From the IMG/VR virus record IMGVR_UViG_3300025141_000048: a DNA stretch of 64,000 nt, one strand, 5' to 3'. The position numbers and the translations under genes were made by a program. This DNA is from a virus. A model generated the notes under the pieces. The model was not told the DNA's origin, made no database searches, and saw nothing but the letters and a program-made list of their open reading frames with translations. Numbering within the stretch: the first letter of the stretch is position 1; the number at the start of each line of letters is the position of its first letter. Shown here in pieces: positions 4,011 through 53,694 of this stretch.

Positions 4011-5072
4011 ATGAACTCCCTCGCCCTTTTATTTGTAGCCATTGTTTTTGCGGCCTCTCCTGCCCCGGAAACGCCTTCTGTGACGGTTGGTATCCATCCA
4101 TTTACGCCTTGCGTTATGGTAGGGGCTGATGGGGAAGCAACGGGCTTCGATATTGATATCCTCAACGATTCTATGAAACGTGCTGGAATCGATTACCAGA
4201 CCCGTTCATACGAAACCGTTACCGATCTATTGAACGCTCTTCGCACCGGAGAGATCGATGCGGCAATGGCTGGCTTGTCCATTACATCCAAGCGGGAAAG
4301 AGAGTTTGACTTTACCCAACCCTACTACAAATCAGGATTAAAGATTCTGATTAGCGAGAACGGGGCGACATACAGCTTTTGGAAATTCAAGTATGCTCGC
4401 AACGTCATTAAGGCATTGATCAATCCTGCCGTTGTTGAACCCTTTCTTTGCATGGGGGCATTGATCATTGGATTTGCTTTCCTCATGTGGATGTGTGAAA
4501 AAGGGTCAGATTCAATCAACGATAAATTCTTCCCTGGTATTTTTGAAGCCATCTACTATTCAGTCGTTACCAGTTCGACGGTTGGTTACGGCGACATTAC
4601 TCCCAAGAAATGGGTTGGACGATTCATGGCGGTCTGTTTGATCTTTCTTGGTATCGTCATGTTCGCCAATGCTACCGGCGTATTGAGCGTTGAATACAAT
4701 CAGGACATGCTCGATTTCAAAATCACCGGTCCCCAGGATTTGAAAGATGAGATCGTTTCTACGAAGCAAGGTACTACTTCAATGGATGCGGTCAAGAAAT
4801 GGGAAGCATTGGTTCAGCCGGTTGACGACATCGAAAGGGCATTGGATCTTCTTGAAGCGGGCAAGGTTGCGGCAGTTGTTTTTGATGCTCCAGTCATTGA
4901 TTGGGCATCCAAACAAAGAAGCAGCGTCATCTCCGTTCCGGGGTTGTATGAGCCTCAGAATTATGGTATCGTATTGTCAGAAGGCAGCAGTATGAAAGAG
5001 CCTTTGGACAAAGCTATTTTGTCAATGCAAGAAGATGGAACTTGGAGTAGGATTCATGACCGTTGGTTCTAG
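4011..5072 (+). CDS. GluR0-like ligand-gated K+ channel (split amino-acid binding domain + pore)
   Basis: Signal peptide, PBP type 2 segments (GFDIDIL...SITSKRE...FTQPY; PQNYGIVL), TM-pore-TM with filter TVGYGD. Confidence 0.85.
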   Translation: MNSLALLFVAIVFAASPAPETPSVTVGIHPFTPCVMVGADGEATGFDIDILNDSMKRAGIDYQTRSYETVTDLLNALRTGEIDAAMAGLSITSKREREFDFTQPYYKSGLKILISENGATYSFWKFKYARNVIKALINPAVVEPFLCMGALIIGFAFLMWMCEKGSDSINDKFFPGIFEAIYYSVVTSSTVGYGDITPKKWVGRFMAVCLIFLGIVMFANATGVLSVEYNQDMLDFKITGPQDLKDEIVSTKQGTTSMDAVKKWEALVQPVDDIERALDLLEAGKVAAVVFDAPVIDWASKQRSSVISVPGLYEPQNYGIVLSEGSSMKEPLDKAILSMQEDGTWSRIHDRWF

Positions 5073-10846: not shown

Positions 10847-12265
10847 ATGAATGGGAACGATATTATTTCTCTCGGATTCGGGCCGGGACCGGTCGTAGGT
10901 ATCGCCCTGTCCGCTGCCAATCTGTCTTCGGAGAGAGGCAGGCGAGATAAGGATATCAAGCTTACCTTGTCGGCTTTGAAAGAGAAGCCCAAGGACTTTC
11001 TGCATGATGAAATCTTTGGGGAGTTGGCTCAAGCTTTGGCTAAGCAAACTGTTGATGATGAAAAACTTAAGAAGATGCTTGAAGACACTAAGCCTAAACC
11101 TTTTAAGATCTGGGGCGAAGAGGGTATCGGTAATAACGCTATAGAACAGATGCATACAGCCATGCAACTTCCCTTTGCGGTTAAGGGGGCTTTGATGGCG
11201 GATTCACATCTTGGCTACGGTCTGCCAATCGGGGGAGTTATCGCTTGTGATAATGTTGTTGTACCTAATTTTGTCGGAGTTGATATCGCATGCCGGGTTA
11301 AGCTGACTATTCTCGACATGCCCGCAAAAGAACTGGCTGGCATGAAAGATAAGTTCAAGAATGCTTTGCTGAGAGAAACCAAATTCGGCAAGGGAGTTGA
11401 ATTCACAAGAAGCGGTCGTCATAATCACGGAGTTATGGATGACCCTCTTTGGGATAAGATTGAACTCCTTAGGAATGGGAAAAACAAGGCTCATAACCAA
11501 CTCGGGACCAGTGGAAGCGGGAATCATTTTGTCGATATCGGAACCATAAAAGTATTTGACGAAGAACTGGGAGAAGGCGAATATGTTGCCATTCTAAGCC
11601 ATAGTGGTAGTCGTGGCATTGGCCATAAGGTAGCTTCTCATTACCATAAGCTGGCTATCTCTTTGATGCCCAAACAGTTTAATCACATTGCAGCATTCCG
11701 TAACTTGGCATGGTTGAGTTTGGACACGGATGAAGGTCAAGAGTATTGGGAAGCCATGAACCTCATGGGACGCTATGCCTCTGCCAACCATGCTCTGATC
11801 CATGAAAGCATCATCCGAAACATCGGCGTCAATGCCATGTCAACGGTTGAGAACCATCATAATTATTCTTGGCTTGAAGAGCATGATGGTAAGGACTATA
11901 TCGTGCATCGTAAGGGAGCAACGCCTGCTGCTATTGGAGAAGTTGGGGTAATTCCTGGAACGATGGCTGACTCTTGCTTTGTTGTTAGGGGCAAGGGTAA
12001 CGCTGAATCTCTGTGTTCTTCTTCTCATGGGGCGGGACGCCAGATGTCTCGTACCGATGCAAAGAACAGCTTTACATGGAGCGAATGGAAGAGGGTTCTG
12101 GAAGAGAAGGGCATTGAGTTGATCTCTGCCGGATTGGATGAAGTGCCTGGAGCATACAAGGACATTCATGAGGTCATGGCAGCACAGGTCGATCTTGTCG
12201 ATCCTATTGCCGAATTTTCTCCTAAGATTGTTCGTATGGCAGATGATGGAACGGCGGAGGATTAA
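10847..12265 (+). CDS. rtcB: RtcB RNA-splicing/repair ligase
   Basis: ADSHLGYGLPIGG, GVDIACR, GSGNHF, NHHNY, HRKGAT, PGTM, SHGAGR, DEVPGAYK. Confidence 0.95.
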   Translation: MNGNDIISLGFGPGPVVGIALSAANLSSERGRRDKDIKLTLSALKEKPKDFLHDEIFGELAQALAKQTVDDEKLKKMLEDTKPKPFKIWGEEGIGNNAIEQMHTAMQLPFAVKGALMADSHLGYGLPIGGVIACDNVVVPNFVGVDIACRVKLTILDMPAKELAGMKDKFKNALLRETKFGKGVEFTRSGRHNHGVMDDPLWDKIELLRNGKNKAHNQLGTSGSGNHFVDIGTIKVFDEELGEGEYVAILSHSGSRGIGHKVASHYHKLAISLMPKQFNHIAAFRNLAWLSLDTDEGQEYWEAMNLMGRYASANHALIHESIIRNIGVNAMSTVENHHNYSWLEEHDGKDYIVHRKGATPAAIGEVGVIPGTMADSCFVVRGKGNAESLCSSSHGAGRQMSRTDAKNSFTWSEWKRVLEEKGIELISAGLDEVPGAYKDIHEVMAAQVDLVDPIAEFSPKIVRMADDGTAED

Positions 12266-13933: not shown

Positions 13934-14316
13934 GGGGCCGCTTGGTATCGACTGGATAAGTTGAGTTGCTAAGCTGCATGCAGTGGTTGGTCGAACGGCC
14001 ACTTAAAAATTCGACTAAAAAACAAATGCCGACAATGGCATCGCTGGCAGCATCGGCCCACAGGCCGATCTCGCCCTGGCTGCTTAGATCAGCCAGCGTT
14101 TCAGGTCGCCCGCTCCTGCGGGGCGTCTGAGGCGAACGAATAGCAGGATCGTCCGTAGCTTGGAAGCCCATCCAATCTACAGGGTTAAATCTAAACGGGC
14201 TGGCAGGGCTTGAGGCTGTCTCTGGTCGCCTCCCTGTAAGATTAAAACAGAGGATAAGCATGTAGAGGCTGGTGGTTTGCTATCTCAGGACGAGAGTTCG
14301 AATCTCTCCGGCTCCA
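13934..14316 (+). ncRNA. ssrA: tmRNA; tag (A)ADNGIAGSIGPQADLALAA at 14028-14087
   Basis: 5' GGGGCCG pairs with 3' CGGCTCC-A (G3-U70), T-loop TTCGAAT, resume context AAAAAACAAAT-GCC, tag ends LALAA*. Confidence 0.92.
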
Positions 14317-38281: not shown

Positions 38282-38367
38282 TCCACAGTACCCGAGTGGT
38301 AGCAGGGGGCGGACTGTTAATCCGTTAGGCGTAAGCCTCGTCGTTGGTTCGAATCCAACCTGTGGAG
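38282..38367 (+). tRNA. tRNA-Asn(GUU) with long variable arm
   Basis: TCCACAG/CTGTGGA-G; loop CTGTTAA; V-arm AGGC-GTAA-GCCT. Confidence 0.9.
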
Positions 38368-39092: not shown

Positions 39093-39178
39093 GGATCGGT
39101 AGTCAAGCGGTTGAAGACATCGGACTTTTAATCCGTCAGGCGTAAGCCTCATCGCAGGTTCGAATCCTGTCCGGTCCA
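39093..39178 (+). tRNA. tRNA-Lys(UUU) with long variable arm
   Basis: GGATCGG/CCGGTCC-A; loop CTTTTAA; V-arm AGGC-GTAA-GCCT. Confidence 0.88.
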
Positions 39179-39211
39179 CTTTGGATTCCGGCTCTTTGAT
39201 AAGTAAAGATT

Positions 39212-40026: not shown

Positions 40027-40100
40027 GGTCTCGTAGTTCAGCCTGGTAGAACAACGCACTTTTAATGCGTGGGTCGAAGGTTCGAATCCTTCCGGGACCA
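40027..40100 (+). tRNA. tRNA-Lys(UUU), canonical
   Basis: GGTCTCG/CGGGACC-A; ACGCA-CTTTTAA-TGCGT. Confidence 0.92.
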
Positions 40101-40110
40101 CTTATCACAT

Positions 40111-41156: not shown

Positions 41157-41220
41157 CTCAATTGGACAGAGCACGGCACTACGGATGCCGAGGTTTCAGG
41201 TTCGAGTCCTGGTTGGTGTA
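41147..41220 (+). tRNA. tRNA-Arg(ACG)
   Basis: GCACCAG/TTGGTGT-A; CGGCA-CTACGGA-TGCCG. Confidence 0.92.
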
Positions 41221-41222
41221 TT

Positions 41223-41447
41223 ATGTTAATAGTTTCTGAAGTACCATATCCTCCCATATGTGAACTGTGTGGATCTCAAGATACACGACATGTTGCAGAT
41301 CTCGAAGACGGGATCTTGCAGAATTGTTGGTGGCGTTGTTTGGGATGTCAGATGGAATATGGCATTGATCCGGATCCCAAAAAAACGTATGTGGATCCAC
41401 GTACGGGGAAATGGGTTGTGACGTTATCATTTCGTCGTAAGTTCTAA
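41223..41447 (+). CDS. Small zinc-ribbon protein
   Basis: CELCG…CLGC. Confidence 0.5.
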   Translation: MLIVSEVPYPPICELCGSQDTRHVADLEDGILQNCWWRCLGCQMEYGIDPDPKKTYVDPRTGKWVVTLSFRRKF

Positions 41448-41455
41448 GTCTTTTA

Positions 41456-41552
41456 CCGCCGGTAGTTTAATTGGTAAAACCCCAAATTTATAATTTGGTA
41501 AAACGCCTCGCTGATTACGGGGTAAGTCCTGGTTCGAGTCCAGGTCGGCGGA
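41456..41552 (+). tRNA. 97 nt tRNA-Ile with two anticodon arms (UAU at 41489-91, GAU at 41513-15)
   Basis: CCGCCGG/TCGGCGG-A; CCAAA-TTTATAA-TTTGG and CCTCG-CTGATTA-CGGGG; intact D and T arms. Confidence 0.8.
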
Positions 41553-41554
41553 TT

Positions 41555-41583
41555 CTCCATAGCCGGAAAATTCCTGATATAAT
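41555..41583 (+). promoter_or_regulatory. CCATAG-class promoter 8/28
   Basis: CTCCATAG-CCGGAAAATTCC-TGATATAAT. Confidence 0.8.
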
Positions 41584-41604
41584 CCGGCTGAAAGGAAGAT
41601 ACCT

Positions 41605-41823
41605 ATGAGGCAGCAAATCATTACTGAGAATAGGGCAGATCGTTTCGAAGACAAAGTTAACCAACTGATGAATGATGGTTGGATGGCGGTCCCCGCAACC
41701 CATGTCGTGGCCAAGGATAACGATTCTATCTTTGGCTACTTCGCTATCGTCCTTGAGAAAAAAAAGATGGGTAACACCGGAAAGTTGCGGACTCCGCCGA
41801 TTTACAACTGGTTGTCACCATGA
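41605..41823 (+). CDS. DUF1737-like small protein
   Basis: FEDKVNQLMNDGW; SD GAAAGGAAG. Confidence 0.6.
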   Translation: MRQQIITENRADRFEDKVNQLMNDGWMAVPATHVVAKDNDSIFGYFAIVLEKKKMGNTGKLRTPPIYNWLSP

Positions 41824-42904: not shown

Positions 42905-42979
42905 GCGCCTGTAGCTCAGTATGGACAGAGCACACCCCTGATAAGGGTGGGGTCGTAGGTTCAAATCCTACTAGGCGCA
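42905..42979 (+). tRNA. tRNA-Ile(GAU)
   Basis: GCGCCTG/TAGGCGC-A; CACCC-CTGATAA-GGGTG. Confidence 0.92.
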
Positions 42980-47642: not shown

Positions 47643-47729
47643 GGGAGTATGCCCTGAGTGGTCGAAAGGAACTGACTCATAATCGGTCGGCGTAACAGCC
47701 CATCGCAGGTTCGAATCCTGCTGCTCCCA
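47643..47729 (+). tRNA. tRNA(CAU) (elongator Met or Ile2) with long variable arm
   Basis: GGGAGTA/TGCTCCC-A; ACTGA-CTCATAA-TCGGT; V-arm GGC-GTAACA-GCC. Confidence 0.85.
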
Positions 47730-52332: not shown

Positions 52333-53694
52333 ATGCCTACAGTTAAGCCCGGCGATTCTGGATTCGTTGACGAAAGTATCCTCAAAACCGCTACTTGGAC
52401 GACCCGCCTTATCATGGTGGACGTTGGCGTAAACAATAACAAATTCCTCGAAGCCTACGTTTTGCCCGATGGGCGATTCGTTGTCATCAATGGACGGGTC
52501 GGCGTTACTCGAAACCAGCAGCCGTCTAAGAATGGCGGACAGTCCGTTGCTGATAAATGGTACAACTCGAAAATCAAAAAGGGCTATCAAGAGGAACGAA
52601 CCGTGGCGGGATCGAATGCCGCCTCATCGTCCGGTAGTCAAAAGGTCGCTTCCAACAAGCGATCATTGTTGCAGATCGCTTTGGATCAGATTCAGGGCAG
52701 CCAAGTTGTTCAGGACTTGGTTAAGTATCTGGTCGATGCCAACATTCATACAATCACGTCGGCAACCAAGATCACGTTTGATGAATCGGCGGGATCATTC
52801 CGAACCCCTAGAGGTTTGGTTGAAGCGTCGGCCATTGATGAAGCAAGGGATTTGCTTGTTCCTATCGGTGACTATGTCGCCAAGGGAGATATTAACAAAA
52901 AGGGTTGCCTCGATGTTGTCTCCGAATACTGCATGTTGATTCCGCAGAATGTCGGCATGACCAGAGGTTGGCATGAGCGTTTGTTCTCATGCGTTGCTGA
53001 CGTTCAAAAGCAGAACGATGTTTTGGATGCGTTGTCATCTTCGCTTCAAGATGCGTTGACTGCCAATGCAAAGCCGACTAAGGGCAAAAAGAAAAAGGCT
53101 GATGCTCCCAAGGTCTTTACCGTCGAGCTTGAGCCGGTTGCTGATAAGAAGATTGTCGCAGCGGTTCGTAAGAAATACAAAGCTGACAAAGGCAATCATT
53201 ACGACGTTGCCACTTTGGATATCAAGGCGGTTTGGGCGGTTCATCTTCCGCCTGTTCGTTCGGCGTTTAAGACTGACGGAATGATTGTCGGCGGCGTCAT
53301 GCAGTTGTGGCATGGAACGAAAGCGTCCAACTTACTTTCGATCTTGAAGGGCGGATTGGTTATTCCGTCGTCAAGCTCTGGTCATGTTACTGGTCGAATG
53401 TTTGGCGATGGTTTGTACTTCTCCGATCAATCGACTAAGAGCCTGCGTTATGCCACGAATGCTTGGGCAGGTGGCGGGCGAACGGATCGGCGTTTCATGT
53501 TCCTTGCTGACGTTGCAATGGGCAAGCCTCATCATCCCAACAATTCTAATTGGTCGATGCGTAAAGCTCCGGCTGGTTATGATTCGACGTATGCTAAAGC
53601 CGGTGCTTGCGTTTCAAACAATGAGATGATCGTTTACAGAACGTCGCAAGCTGACTTGACTTATCTGATTGAGTTTACGCCAAACGGTTGCTGA
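52333..53694 (+). CDS. WGR-domain + regulatory helical domain + PARP catalytic domain (ADP-ribosyltransferase)
   Basis: NNNKF.E…NGRVG (WGR-like); LWHGT, GRMFGDGLYF…SLRY, FLADVAMG, NNEMIVY. Confidence 0.88.
   Translation: MPTVKPGDSGFVDESILKTATWTTRLIMVDVGVNNNKFLEAYVLPDGRFVVINGRVGVTRNQQPSKNGGQSVADKWYNSKIKKGYQEERTVAGSNAASSSGSQKVASNKRSLLQIALDQIQGSQVVQDLVKYLVDANIHTITSATKITFDESAGSFRTPRGLVEASAIDEARDLLVPIGDYVAKGDINKKGCLDVVSEYCMLIPQNVGMTRGWHERLFSCVADVQKQNDVLDALSSSLQDALTANAKPTKGKKKKADAPKVFTVELEPVADKKIVAAVRKKYKADKGNHYDVATLDIKAVWAVHLPPVRSAFKTDGMIVGGVMQLWHGTKASNLLSILKGGLVIPSSSSGHVTGRMFGDGLYFSDQSTKSLRYATNAWAGGGRTDRRFMFLADVAMGKPHHPNNSNWSMRKAPAGYDSTYAKAGACVSNNEMIVYRTSQADLTYLIEFTPNGC

Follow-up and report, generated by a model that had tools for sequence, protein, structure and literature searches.

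A tRNA gene with two isoleucine hairpins

The window, by which we mean the whole 64,000-nt stretch of DNA that was analysed (IMG/VR record IMGVR_UViG_3300025141_000048), looks like a marine phage contig and carries an array of 19 tRNA genes called by ARAGORN between 38.2 and 47.7 kb, two tRNAs with a CAU anticodon among them. Within the span of this array lies the tRNA gene described in Table 1. The original prediction, made from the letters alone, had described a single tRNA enclosing two hairpins, the first with the isoleucine anticodon UAU and the second with GAU, together with a 10-nt direct repeat, and the sequence and the comparison with Rfam bear this description out in every detail. 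The two copies of the repeat, TTGGTAAAAC, lie at 41471-41480 and 41495-41504, and the Rfam model RF00005, whose gathering score is 29, aligned with all 97 nt of the gene over model positions 1-71.

Table 1. Parts of the two-hairpin tRNA gene, in coordinates of the window.
Feature	Position	Strand	Details
Whole tRNA gene, 97 nt	41456..41552	+	CCA not encoded (TTC next); RF00005 56.2 bits; R1 78.3 bits
Acceptor stem, 7 bp	41456..41462 (CCGCCGG), pairs with 41545-41551 (TCGGCGG)	+	Last pair G.U; A73 at 41552
D arm	41465..41480	+	GTTT (41465-68), loop AATTGGTA, AAAC (41477-80); U12-A23 present
Arm 1, predicted decoding arm	41482..41498	+	CCAAA/TTTATAA/TTTGG; TAT 41489-41491, U33 41488, A37 41492
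Linker TAAAAC	41499..41504	+	Second copy of the D-stem 3' strand; within the 10-nt repeat 41495-41504
Arm 2, extra arm	41505..41523	+	GCCTCG/loop CTGATTA/CGGGGT; GAT 41513-41515
AAGT	41524..41527	+	With T41523, ordinary 5-nt variable loop (44-48)
T arm	41528..41544	+	CCTGG/TTCGAGT/CCAGG

In the Infernal alignment arm 1 takes the place of the anticodon arm, and 26 nt are placed as an insertion in the variable region. ARAGORN made no call on the full 97-nt gene; once either 24-nt unit had been deleted, it called a clean 73-nt tRNA-Ile(gat) or tRNA-Ile(tat), so that the two alternative folds foreseen at the outset, Ile(UAU) and Ile(GAU), are both formally canonical. In the minimum free energy structure computed with RNAfold (-31.7 kcal/mol, z -2.4) the acceptor stem, the T arm and both hairpins are retained. 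Arm 1 has everything that is expected of an anticodon arm, namely a 5-bp stem, a 7-nt loop, U33 and a purine at position 37, and arm 2 of the window falls short of this at position 37, which is a U. Read in its own register, arm 2 of the window has U at the equivalent of position 33 and U.G instead of C-G at 29-41. A scan for promoters and terminators around the tRNA gene gave nothing informative.

Occurrence in other metagenomes and genomic surroundings

About 20 public marine runs, drawn from 16 studies, contain the stretch. Contigs from four runs belonging to four independent studies (seawater 2020, seawater 2023, marine 2019 and hydrothermal vent 2025) were compared with it over 41200-41800 and revealed no differences, insertions, deletions or joints inside the tRNA. 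This agreement makes an error at the level of reads or assembly very unlikely, and it rules out the assembly artefact that had been raised originally as a danger to the claim. In the GAU loop, the U at the equivalent of position 37, which had been pointed out as atypical, is likewise real, being identical in the contigs of all four studies, and a one-armed allele was not seen in these four other metagenomes. No close relative of the window was found in IMG/VR, either with an exact-spacing pattern or with the neighbouring proteins as queries, and when the region was compared with GenBank phages by megablast and blastn, the only matches were generic tRNA pieces.

The window has a canonical tRNA-Ile(GAU) elsewhere (42905-42979), and AUA accounts for 17.7% of the isoleucine codons, or 11.8 per thousand, in its 74 long ORFs. 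Three further tRNAs of the window, tRNA-Asn(GUU) at 38282-38367, tRNA-Lys(UUU) at 39093-39179 and a CAU tRNA at 47643-47729, have extra variable arms of 13-15 nt, of the form GGCGUAAGCC or GGC-GUAACA-GCC, which are unusual for such identities; a canonical Lys(UUU) tRNA is also present at 40027-40101. The same phage-like contig that holds the tRNA array encodes an RtcB RNA ligase (10847-12265), of a type common in phages and with no link to the two-arm tRNA gene. Its other contents include a tmRNA gene (13934-14316) with the tag ADNGIAGSIGPQADLALAA, an ORF at 4011-5072 with solute-binding and ion-channel domains, resembling a glutamate receptor, and an ORF at 52333-53694 with a PARP catalytic domain.

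A family of two-hairpin tRNA-Ile genes in phages

A scan of IMG/VR in which the D arm and the T loop were fixed and a long spacing was required returned 54 loci, among which were 16 distinct two-hairpin tRNAs, or 17 with that of the window. In all 17, arm 1 has UAU, and the loop of arm 2, 7 nt long, has GAU in its middle. A covariance model, R1, built from 13 two-hairpin genes gave 77-107 bits to the two-hairpin genes of these loci and at most 54 bits to the other tRNAs there; over all members the range is 58-107 bits, and the gene of the window scores with the members (Table 1). A second IMG/VR scan that left the D arm free brought at least 61 further distinct and cloverleaf-valid members with many different D arms; its pattern imposed GAU and C-N-C/G-N-G on these 61 sequences, and the sets that are unbiased for arm 2 are the first scan, the set from contigs of metagenome-assembled genomes (MAGs) and the arm-2-blind sample described below. 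Among the loci fetched from the second scan onward, ARAGORN reported a long tRNA-Ile(tat) in at least 103. The collection of bacterial and archaeal genomes yielded only three matches, all of them on MAG contigs with tRNA arrays, which indicates that the two-hairpin family is phage-borne. The search for homologues that had been suggested originally was thus productive, yielding 78 aligned distinct relatives and others found later, with cultured phages among their carriers.

Three cultured phages carry members that were confirmed by R1 at 78-80 bits: Synechococcus phage SynMITS9220M01 (95 nt, annotated 'tRNA-Ile'), Levilactobacillus phage ENFP1 (91 nt, annotated 'tRNA-Ile') and Lactobacillus phage LpeD (unannotated). 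Synechococcus phage DSL-LC02 and Lactobacillus phages Lpa804 and 3-521 were matched by BLAST only. A family member is absent from T5, T4, KVP40, FelixO1 and rV5 and from the T1-like phages Rogue1, ACG-M12 and JK06, and BLAST of three members (L128, L123 and L205) against GenBank phages gave no match. The records of members in GenBank bear the label 'tRNA-Ile' or no annotation at all, and in ARAGORN the shorter members come out as plain tRNA-Ile, parsed with a long variable arm, and the longer members go undetected. A loose pattern (TTTATAA..CTGATNA..GTTCRA) produced mostly chance matches, with two hairpins in 4 of 120.

The arm-2-blind scan, defined by the loop CTTATAM and the T loop, yielded 64 valid phage tRNA(UAU) genes, of which 42 are two-armed, 21 are one-armed and one has a short GNRA-capped arm; GAU is present in the loop of 40 of the 42. 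In IMG/VR the exceptions to the GAU rule are L326 and L348, which have an extra arm without GAU, and L356, which has a short GNRA-capped stem.

Some features of these genes and of other unusual tRNAs were recorded along the way. Most family members encode CCA, which the window does not, and the first acceptor pair (columns 1/104 of the alignment A4 described below) is often a weak 1-72 pair, G.U in 45 and A-U in 10 of 78 members, with C1-G72 in the window. In LpeD (L318:550-690) the two-hairpin tRNA-Ile is followed, about 160 nt further downstream, by the start of a gene for an HNH endonuclease, an arrangement reminiscent of the HNH cassettes in the tRNA cluster of the window. A 97-nt gene resembling tRNA-Glu(UUC) (L160:2407-2503, minus strand) has a 6-bp hairpin with the loop CUAAAAC inserted in its D loop, and a 96-nt tRNA-like gene (L133:706-801, plus strand) has the same D arm, a repeated AAAAC, two internal hairpins and no clear anticodon, and may represent another duplicated-arm design. 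In rV5 (L302, NC_011041, about 62.2 kb) ARAGORN calls a 99-nt tRNA-?(atcc) whose extra arm is long and whose anticodon loop has 8 nt; it is not a member of the family.

The two arms are conserved for different features

In a model-based alignment of 78 distinct members (A4), standard pairs occupy 97.3% of the pair cells, compared with 66% after shuffling and at most 52% when the partners were slid, and double-sided changes are found in all five helices, with arm 2 paired at 100%. Arm 1 is conserved as an anticodon arm would be, with U33 in 77 of 78 members, A37 in 78 of 78, a pyrimidine at 32, the UAU triplet and a 5-bp stem that covaries at all five pairs. Arm 2 is conserved differently. The equivalent of position 33 is A in 72 members, U in 5 and C in 1, the equivalent of position 37 is U in 63, G in 10 and A in 5, and the stem has in most members 4 bp flanked by purines. 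What arm 2 retains is GAU, found in 19 of 19 members that were gathered with no condition on arm 2, together with C-G pairs at the 29-41 and 31-39 equivalents. An R-N-R-N-Y-type loop follows arm 2 in 78 of 78 members (5 nt in 72 and 6 nt in 6).

The pair C-G at 29-41 was present in every arm 2 inspected and in 22% of arm 1 stems, and it occurs in 48% of one-armed phage tRNA(UAU) and in 66% of phage tRNA-Ile(GAU). The difference between arm 1 and the one-armed tRNA(UAU) has a Fisher p of 0.008, a generous value because the sequences compared are related.

The window shares with the family the arm 1 loop Y-U-UAU-A-N, the central GAU in arm 2, A73 and the (T)AAGT that follows arm 2, and departs from it in having a 6-bp arm 2, the rare loop CUGAUUA and the TAAAAC linker. 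Its nearest relative, L425 from another metagenome, differs at 15 positions, and every pair remains intact. Eight of the 15 are accounted for by four compensatory double changes, divided equally between arm 1 and the T stem. All four loop bases that flank GAU differ between the two genes (CU-GAU-UA versus UA-GAU-GU), and GAU itself is unchanged. With differences of this kind, the gene can be neither a pseudogene nor the scar of a recent recombination. Judged from these alignments, the two-hairpin architecture is old, widespread and under purifying selection, which speaks against the idea, put forward with the original prediction, that the gene is a snapshot of how long variable arms arise.

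A probable decoding arm and a candidate accessory arm

Our overall reading, to which, taken together with the roles of its two arms set out below, we assign a probability of roughly 0.6, is that the window carries a functional phage tRNA-Ile(UAU) gene belonging to a large family of two-hairpin phage tRNA-Ile. We hold with high confidence that this is a real tRNA gene under selection. Arm 1, with UAU in the anticodon position, is predicted with good confidence to read AUA without lysidine or TilS. The gene has the combination of UAU, A37 and A73 that characterises TilS-independent tRNA-Ile(UAU) decoders of AUA, and the UAU arm bears a decoding signature across the family, so that a TilS-independent AUA reader is the best supported of the roles that had been proposed originally. 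Arm 2 is best read as a selected accessory hairpin, different both from a decoding arm and from the usual variable arm of class II tRNAs.

The architecture resembles what a tandem duplication of the unit formed by the D-stem 3' strand, N26 and the anticodon arm, involving a tRNA-Ile(GAU), would leave behind. Arm 2 could then be the relic of a duplicated tRNA-Ile(GAU) anticodon arm, which may have been retained since something reads GAU on a C-G stem, and the clade of the window would most likely be the one that keeps the original boundary of the duplication, with its 24-nt unit and duplicated TAAAAC. The most economical candidate for the reader of the GAU in arm 2 would be isoleucyl-tRNA synthetase (IleRS). 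The identity set of E. coli tRNA-Ile comprises A73, the anticodon, t6A37, C4-G69, U12-A23 and C29-G41 (PMC9976931), and the gene of the window carries C4-G69, A73 and U12-A23. For UAU the kcat/Km of E. coli IleRS is 360-fold lower than it is for LAU, and t6A37 is important in charging (PMC3575796). Seen against this set, arm 2 appears to keep the parts of a tRNA-Ile(GAU) anticodon arm that the E. coli IleRS reportedly reads (G34, A35, U36, C29-G41 and mostly A38) and to have lost those that the ribosome requires (U33 and a purine at 37).

As the mechanism that we favour, we hypothesise that arm 2 might act as an aminoacylation handle for IleRS, although we regard this as doubtful. Such a handle would offset the poor recognition of U34 by an ordinary bacterial IleRS. 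A little more tentative still is a full division of labour, in which the synthetase would read the GAU arm (GAU with C29-G41) and the ribosome the UAU arm, and which would let phages bypass both TilS and the rejection of U34 by the IleRS of the host. During IleRS binding, arm 2 would probably take the stacked position under the D stem. Because IleRS belongs to class I, the side of the tRNA with the variable loop should remain exposed to solvent in the complex, and an arm 2 located at the variable-arm position could probably not reach the anticodon-binding domain without a swap of the arms, which is pure conjecture. Several observations argue against the handle: t6A37, an important determinant for the E. 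coli enzyme, is impossible in an arm that lacks A37, one-armed phage tRNA(UAU) make up about a third of the arm-2-blind sample, and arm 2 of the window itself deviates from the consensus of the family. A role for GAU within the tRNA itself was also considered. Pairing with AUU in the D loop is ruled out by D loops that vary widely across members, and pairing with the T loop is ruled out on inspection, since positions 59-60 vary.

Alternative readings of the second hairpin

The original prediction had proposed a conformationally switchable tRNA, and a bistable, dual-anticodon molecule whose D stem pairs with either copy of AAAC, thereby reading AUA or AUC/AUU, would make direct use of two folds that in the window are both formally canonical. 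In the window, either copy of AAAC could serve as partner for the 5' strand of the D stem. The mechanism itself is available to only 6 of 78 members, namely the clade of the window and two probable chance cases, and the linker is 2 nt long in 11 of 78, so that re-pairing of the D stem is a trait of a clade and is ruled out as a trait of the family. Several diverged lineages of that clade, whose stems have all changed, retain the TAAAAC linker (a metagenome scan for the linker recovered L425, L405, L409 and the L398 and L130 groups, and it is known from the clade of the window only), but this conservation is not independent evidence and is partly by construction, because the metagenome pattern required both TAAAAC and GAU. 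Arm 2 would also fit the ribosome poorly, with U33 in 5 of 78 members, a purine at 37 in 15 of 78 and mostly a 4-bp stem, and the window already has a canonical tRNA-Ile(GAU). We consider a dual-anticodon tRNA highly improbable. Hardly any credence is due to a non-functional scar, such as a chimera of tRNA-Ile(UAU) and tRNA-Ile(GAU) joined at a TTGGTAA microhomology, or to a precursor trimmed or spliced to 73 nt. The 10-nt direct repeat, the exact 24-nt periodicity, the HNH cassettes and tRNA halves nearby (according to the annotation that accompanied the original prediction) and the RtcB gene in the window are all compatible with events of this kind, but over 78 diverged genes share the architecture and show compensatory changes in each helix, the one-armed allele was not seen in the four other metagenomes, and a chimera or pseudogene is ruled out by the covariation of the family and the compensatory changes in L425. 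Neither the Infernal alignment nor the minimum free energy fold has features of a bulge-helix-bulge or a group I intron, the gene, whose insert is a plain hairpin, matched none of the Rfam intron families, and we know of no machinery in bacteria that would excise a 24-nt piece from a tRNA. The spliced 73-nt product originally envisaged thus finds no support in the folds or in the contigs of the four studies, and RtcB is not linked to the gene.

A different kind of explanation grants that the gene is functional and questions which amino acid it carries, or which partner arm 2 serves. A class II-like tRNA mischarged by LeuRS (or SerRS), through which AUA would be read as another amino acid, is suggested by the combination of a long extra arm, A73 and UAU, as in the nematode nev-tRNA-Ile(UAU) (PMC4300185), and by the D loop AAUUGGUA and the A15/U48 of the window, which resemble tRNA-Leu. 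Across the family, however, A15-U48 occurs in 51% of members, as against 96% of phage tRNA-Leu, and the G73 found in 81% of tRNA-Ser is absent, with A73 in 99% of the family; on these frequencies we reject a leucine or serine identity. Such a reading would also leave the invariant GAU unexplained, and the extra arm precedes a complete 5-nt variable loop instead of lying inside it, which makes the mischarging scenario scarcely credible. Unlikely, but deserving more weight than this, is the possibility that arm 1 still decodes AUA and that arm 2 was selected for a partner other than IleRS, for example as a decoy or shield against a host factor, such as an anticodon nuclease, that attacks the anticodon arm of tRNA-Ile(GAU), as a site for a phage or host protein, or as a structural element that restricts AUG misreading. 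Conservation of GAU and of the C-G pairs with changed position-33 and position-37 equivalents would suit such a partner, as would an arm 2 that lacks the t6A37 determinant used by IleRS, and other phage tRNAs, three of them in the window, have extra variable arms that mimic no anticodon. Unmodified UAU is moreover known to misread AUG on E. coli ribosomes (PMC3575796). Against a partner of this kind, the strict link between the GAU arm and the UAU tRNA is most simply seen as a shared problem of isoleucine identity, and no conserved neighbouring protein gene was seen. To our knowledge, there is no nuclease or other factor specific for the anticodon of tRNA-Ile(GAU).

Relation to known tRNAs and implications

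Returning to the reading of the gene as a functional phage tRNA-Ile(UAU) with an accessory arm, we found in a full-text literature search no published account of a tRNA-Ile(UAU) that bears GAU on a second arm. The closest counterpart in decoding is the tRNA-Ile2(UAU) of Mycoplasma mobile (Taniguchi et al. 2013, PMC3575796), which like that of the window has UAU, A37 and A73 and would share with it the reading of AUA without lysidine. Both face the same problem, namely that an ordinary IleRS handles U34 poorly, but M. mobile has an ordinary cloverleaf and its solution lies in Arg865 of its IleRS and in the ribosome, whereas the phage tRNA has an extra GAU hairpin and is phage-borne.

Like the class II tRNAs (Leu, Ser, Tyr and Sec), whose variable arms typically have short loops, the family has a fifth helix that separates the anticodon arm from the T arm. 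It differs from them in that the extra helix directly follows position 43 and precedes a complete variable loop of 5 nt, that the loop of the extra arm has 7 nt with an invariant GAU, and that the identity marks of Leu and Ser are not kept. The nematode nev-tRNA-Ile(UAU), which is leucylated in vitro and for which no influence on the proteome could be detected (Hamashima et al. 2015, PMC4300185), also combines a UAU anticodon with a variable arm on the body of the tRNA; it is eukaryotic, its arm is of the Leu type, and no GAU motif is reported in the excerpted text of that study.

Genes for tRNA-Ile(TAT) were noted in cyanomyoviruses and in none of the cyanobacteria analysed (Limor-Waisberg et al. 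2011, PMC3152331). These are probably the very same genes as the two-hairpin family; that study, as excerpted, uses the anticodons in an analysis of codon usage and makes no mention of a two-hairpin structure. What is new in the window is a slightly aberrant clade, with its 6-bp arm 2 and TAAAAC linker and its invisibility to ARAGORN.

A tRNA-Ile(UAU) is rare in bacteria because both the synthetase and the ribosome handle UAU badly, and phages appear to solve at least part of this problem by means of a tRNA architecture that has been hidden from standard annotation. Whether the proposed handle is right or wrong, it calls for an explanation that dozens of unrelated phages have an invariant, triloop-like GAU motif on a fifth helix. 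If the handle is real, identity and decoding would be physically uncoupled in one tRNA, with one anticodon for identity and another for decoding, and an uncoupling of this kind would be relevant to the evolution of the genetic code and to the engineering of orthogonal tRNAs.
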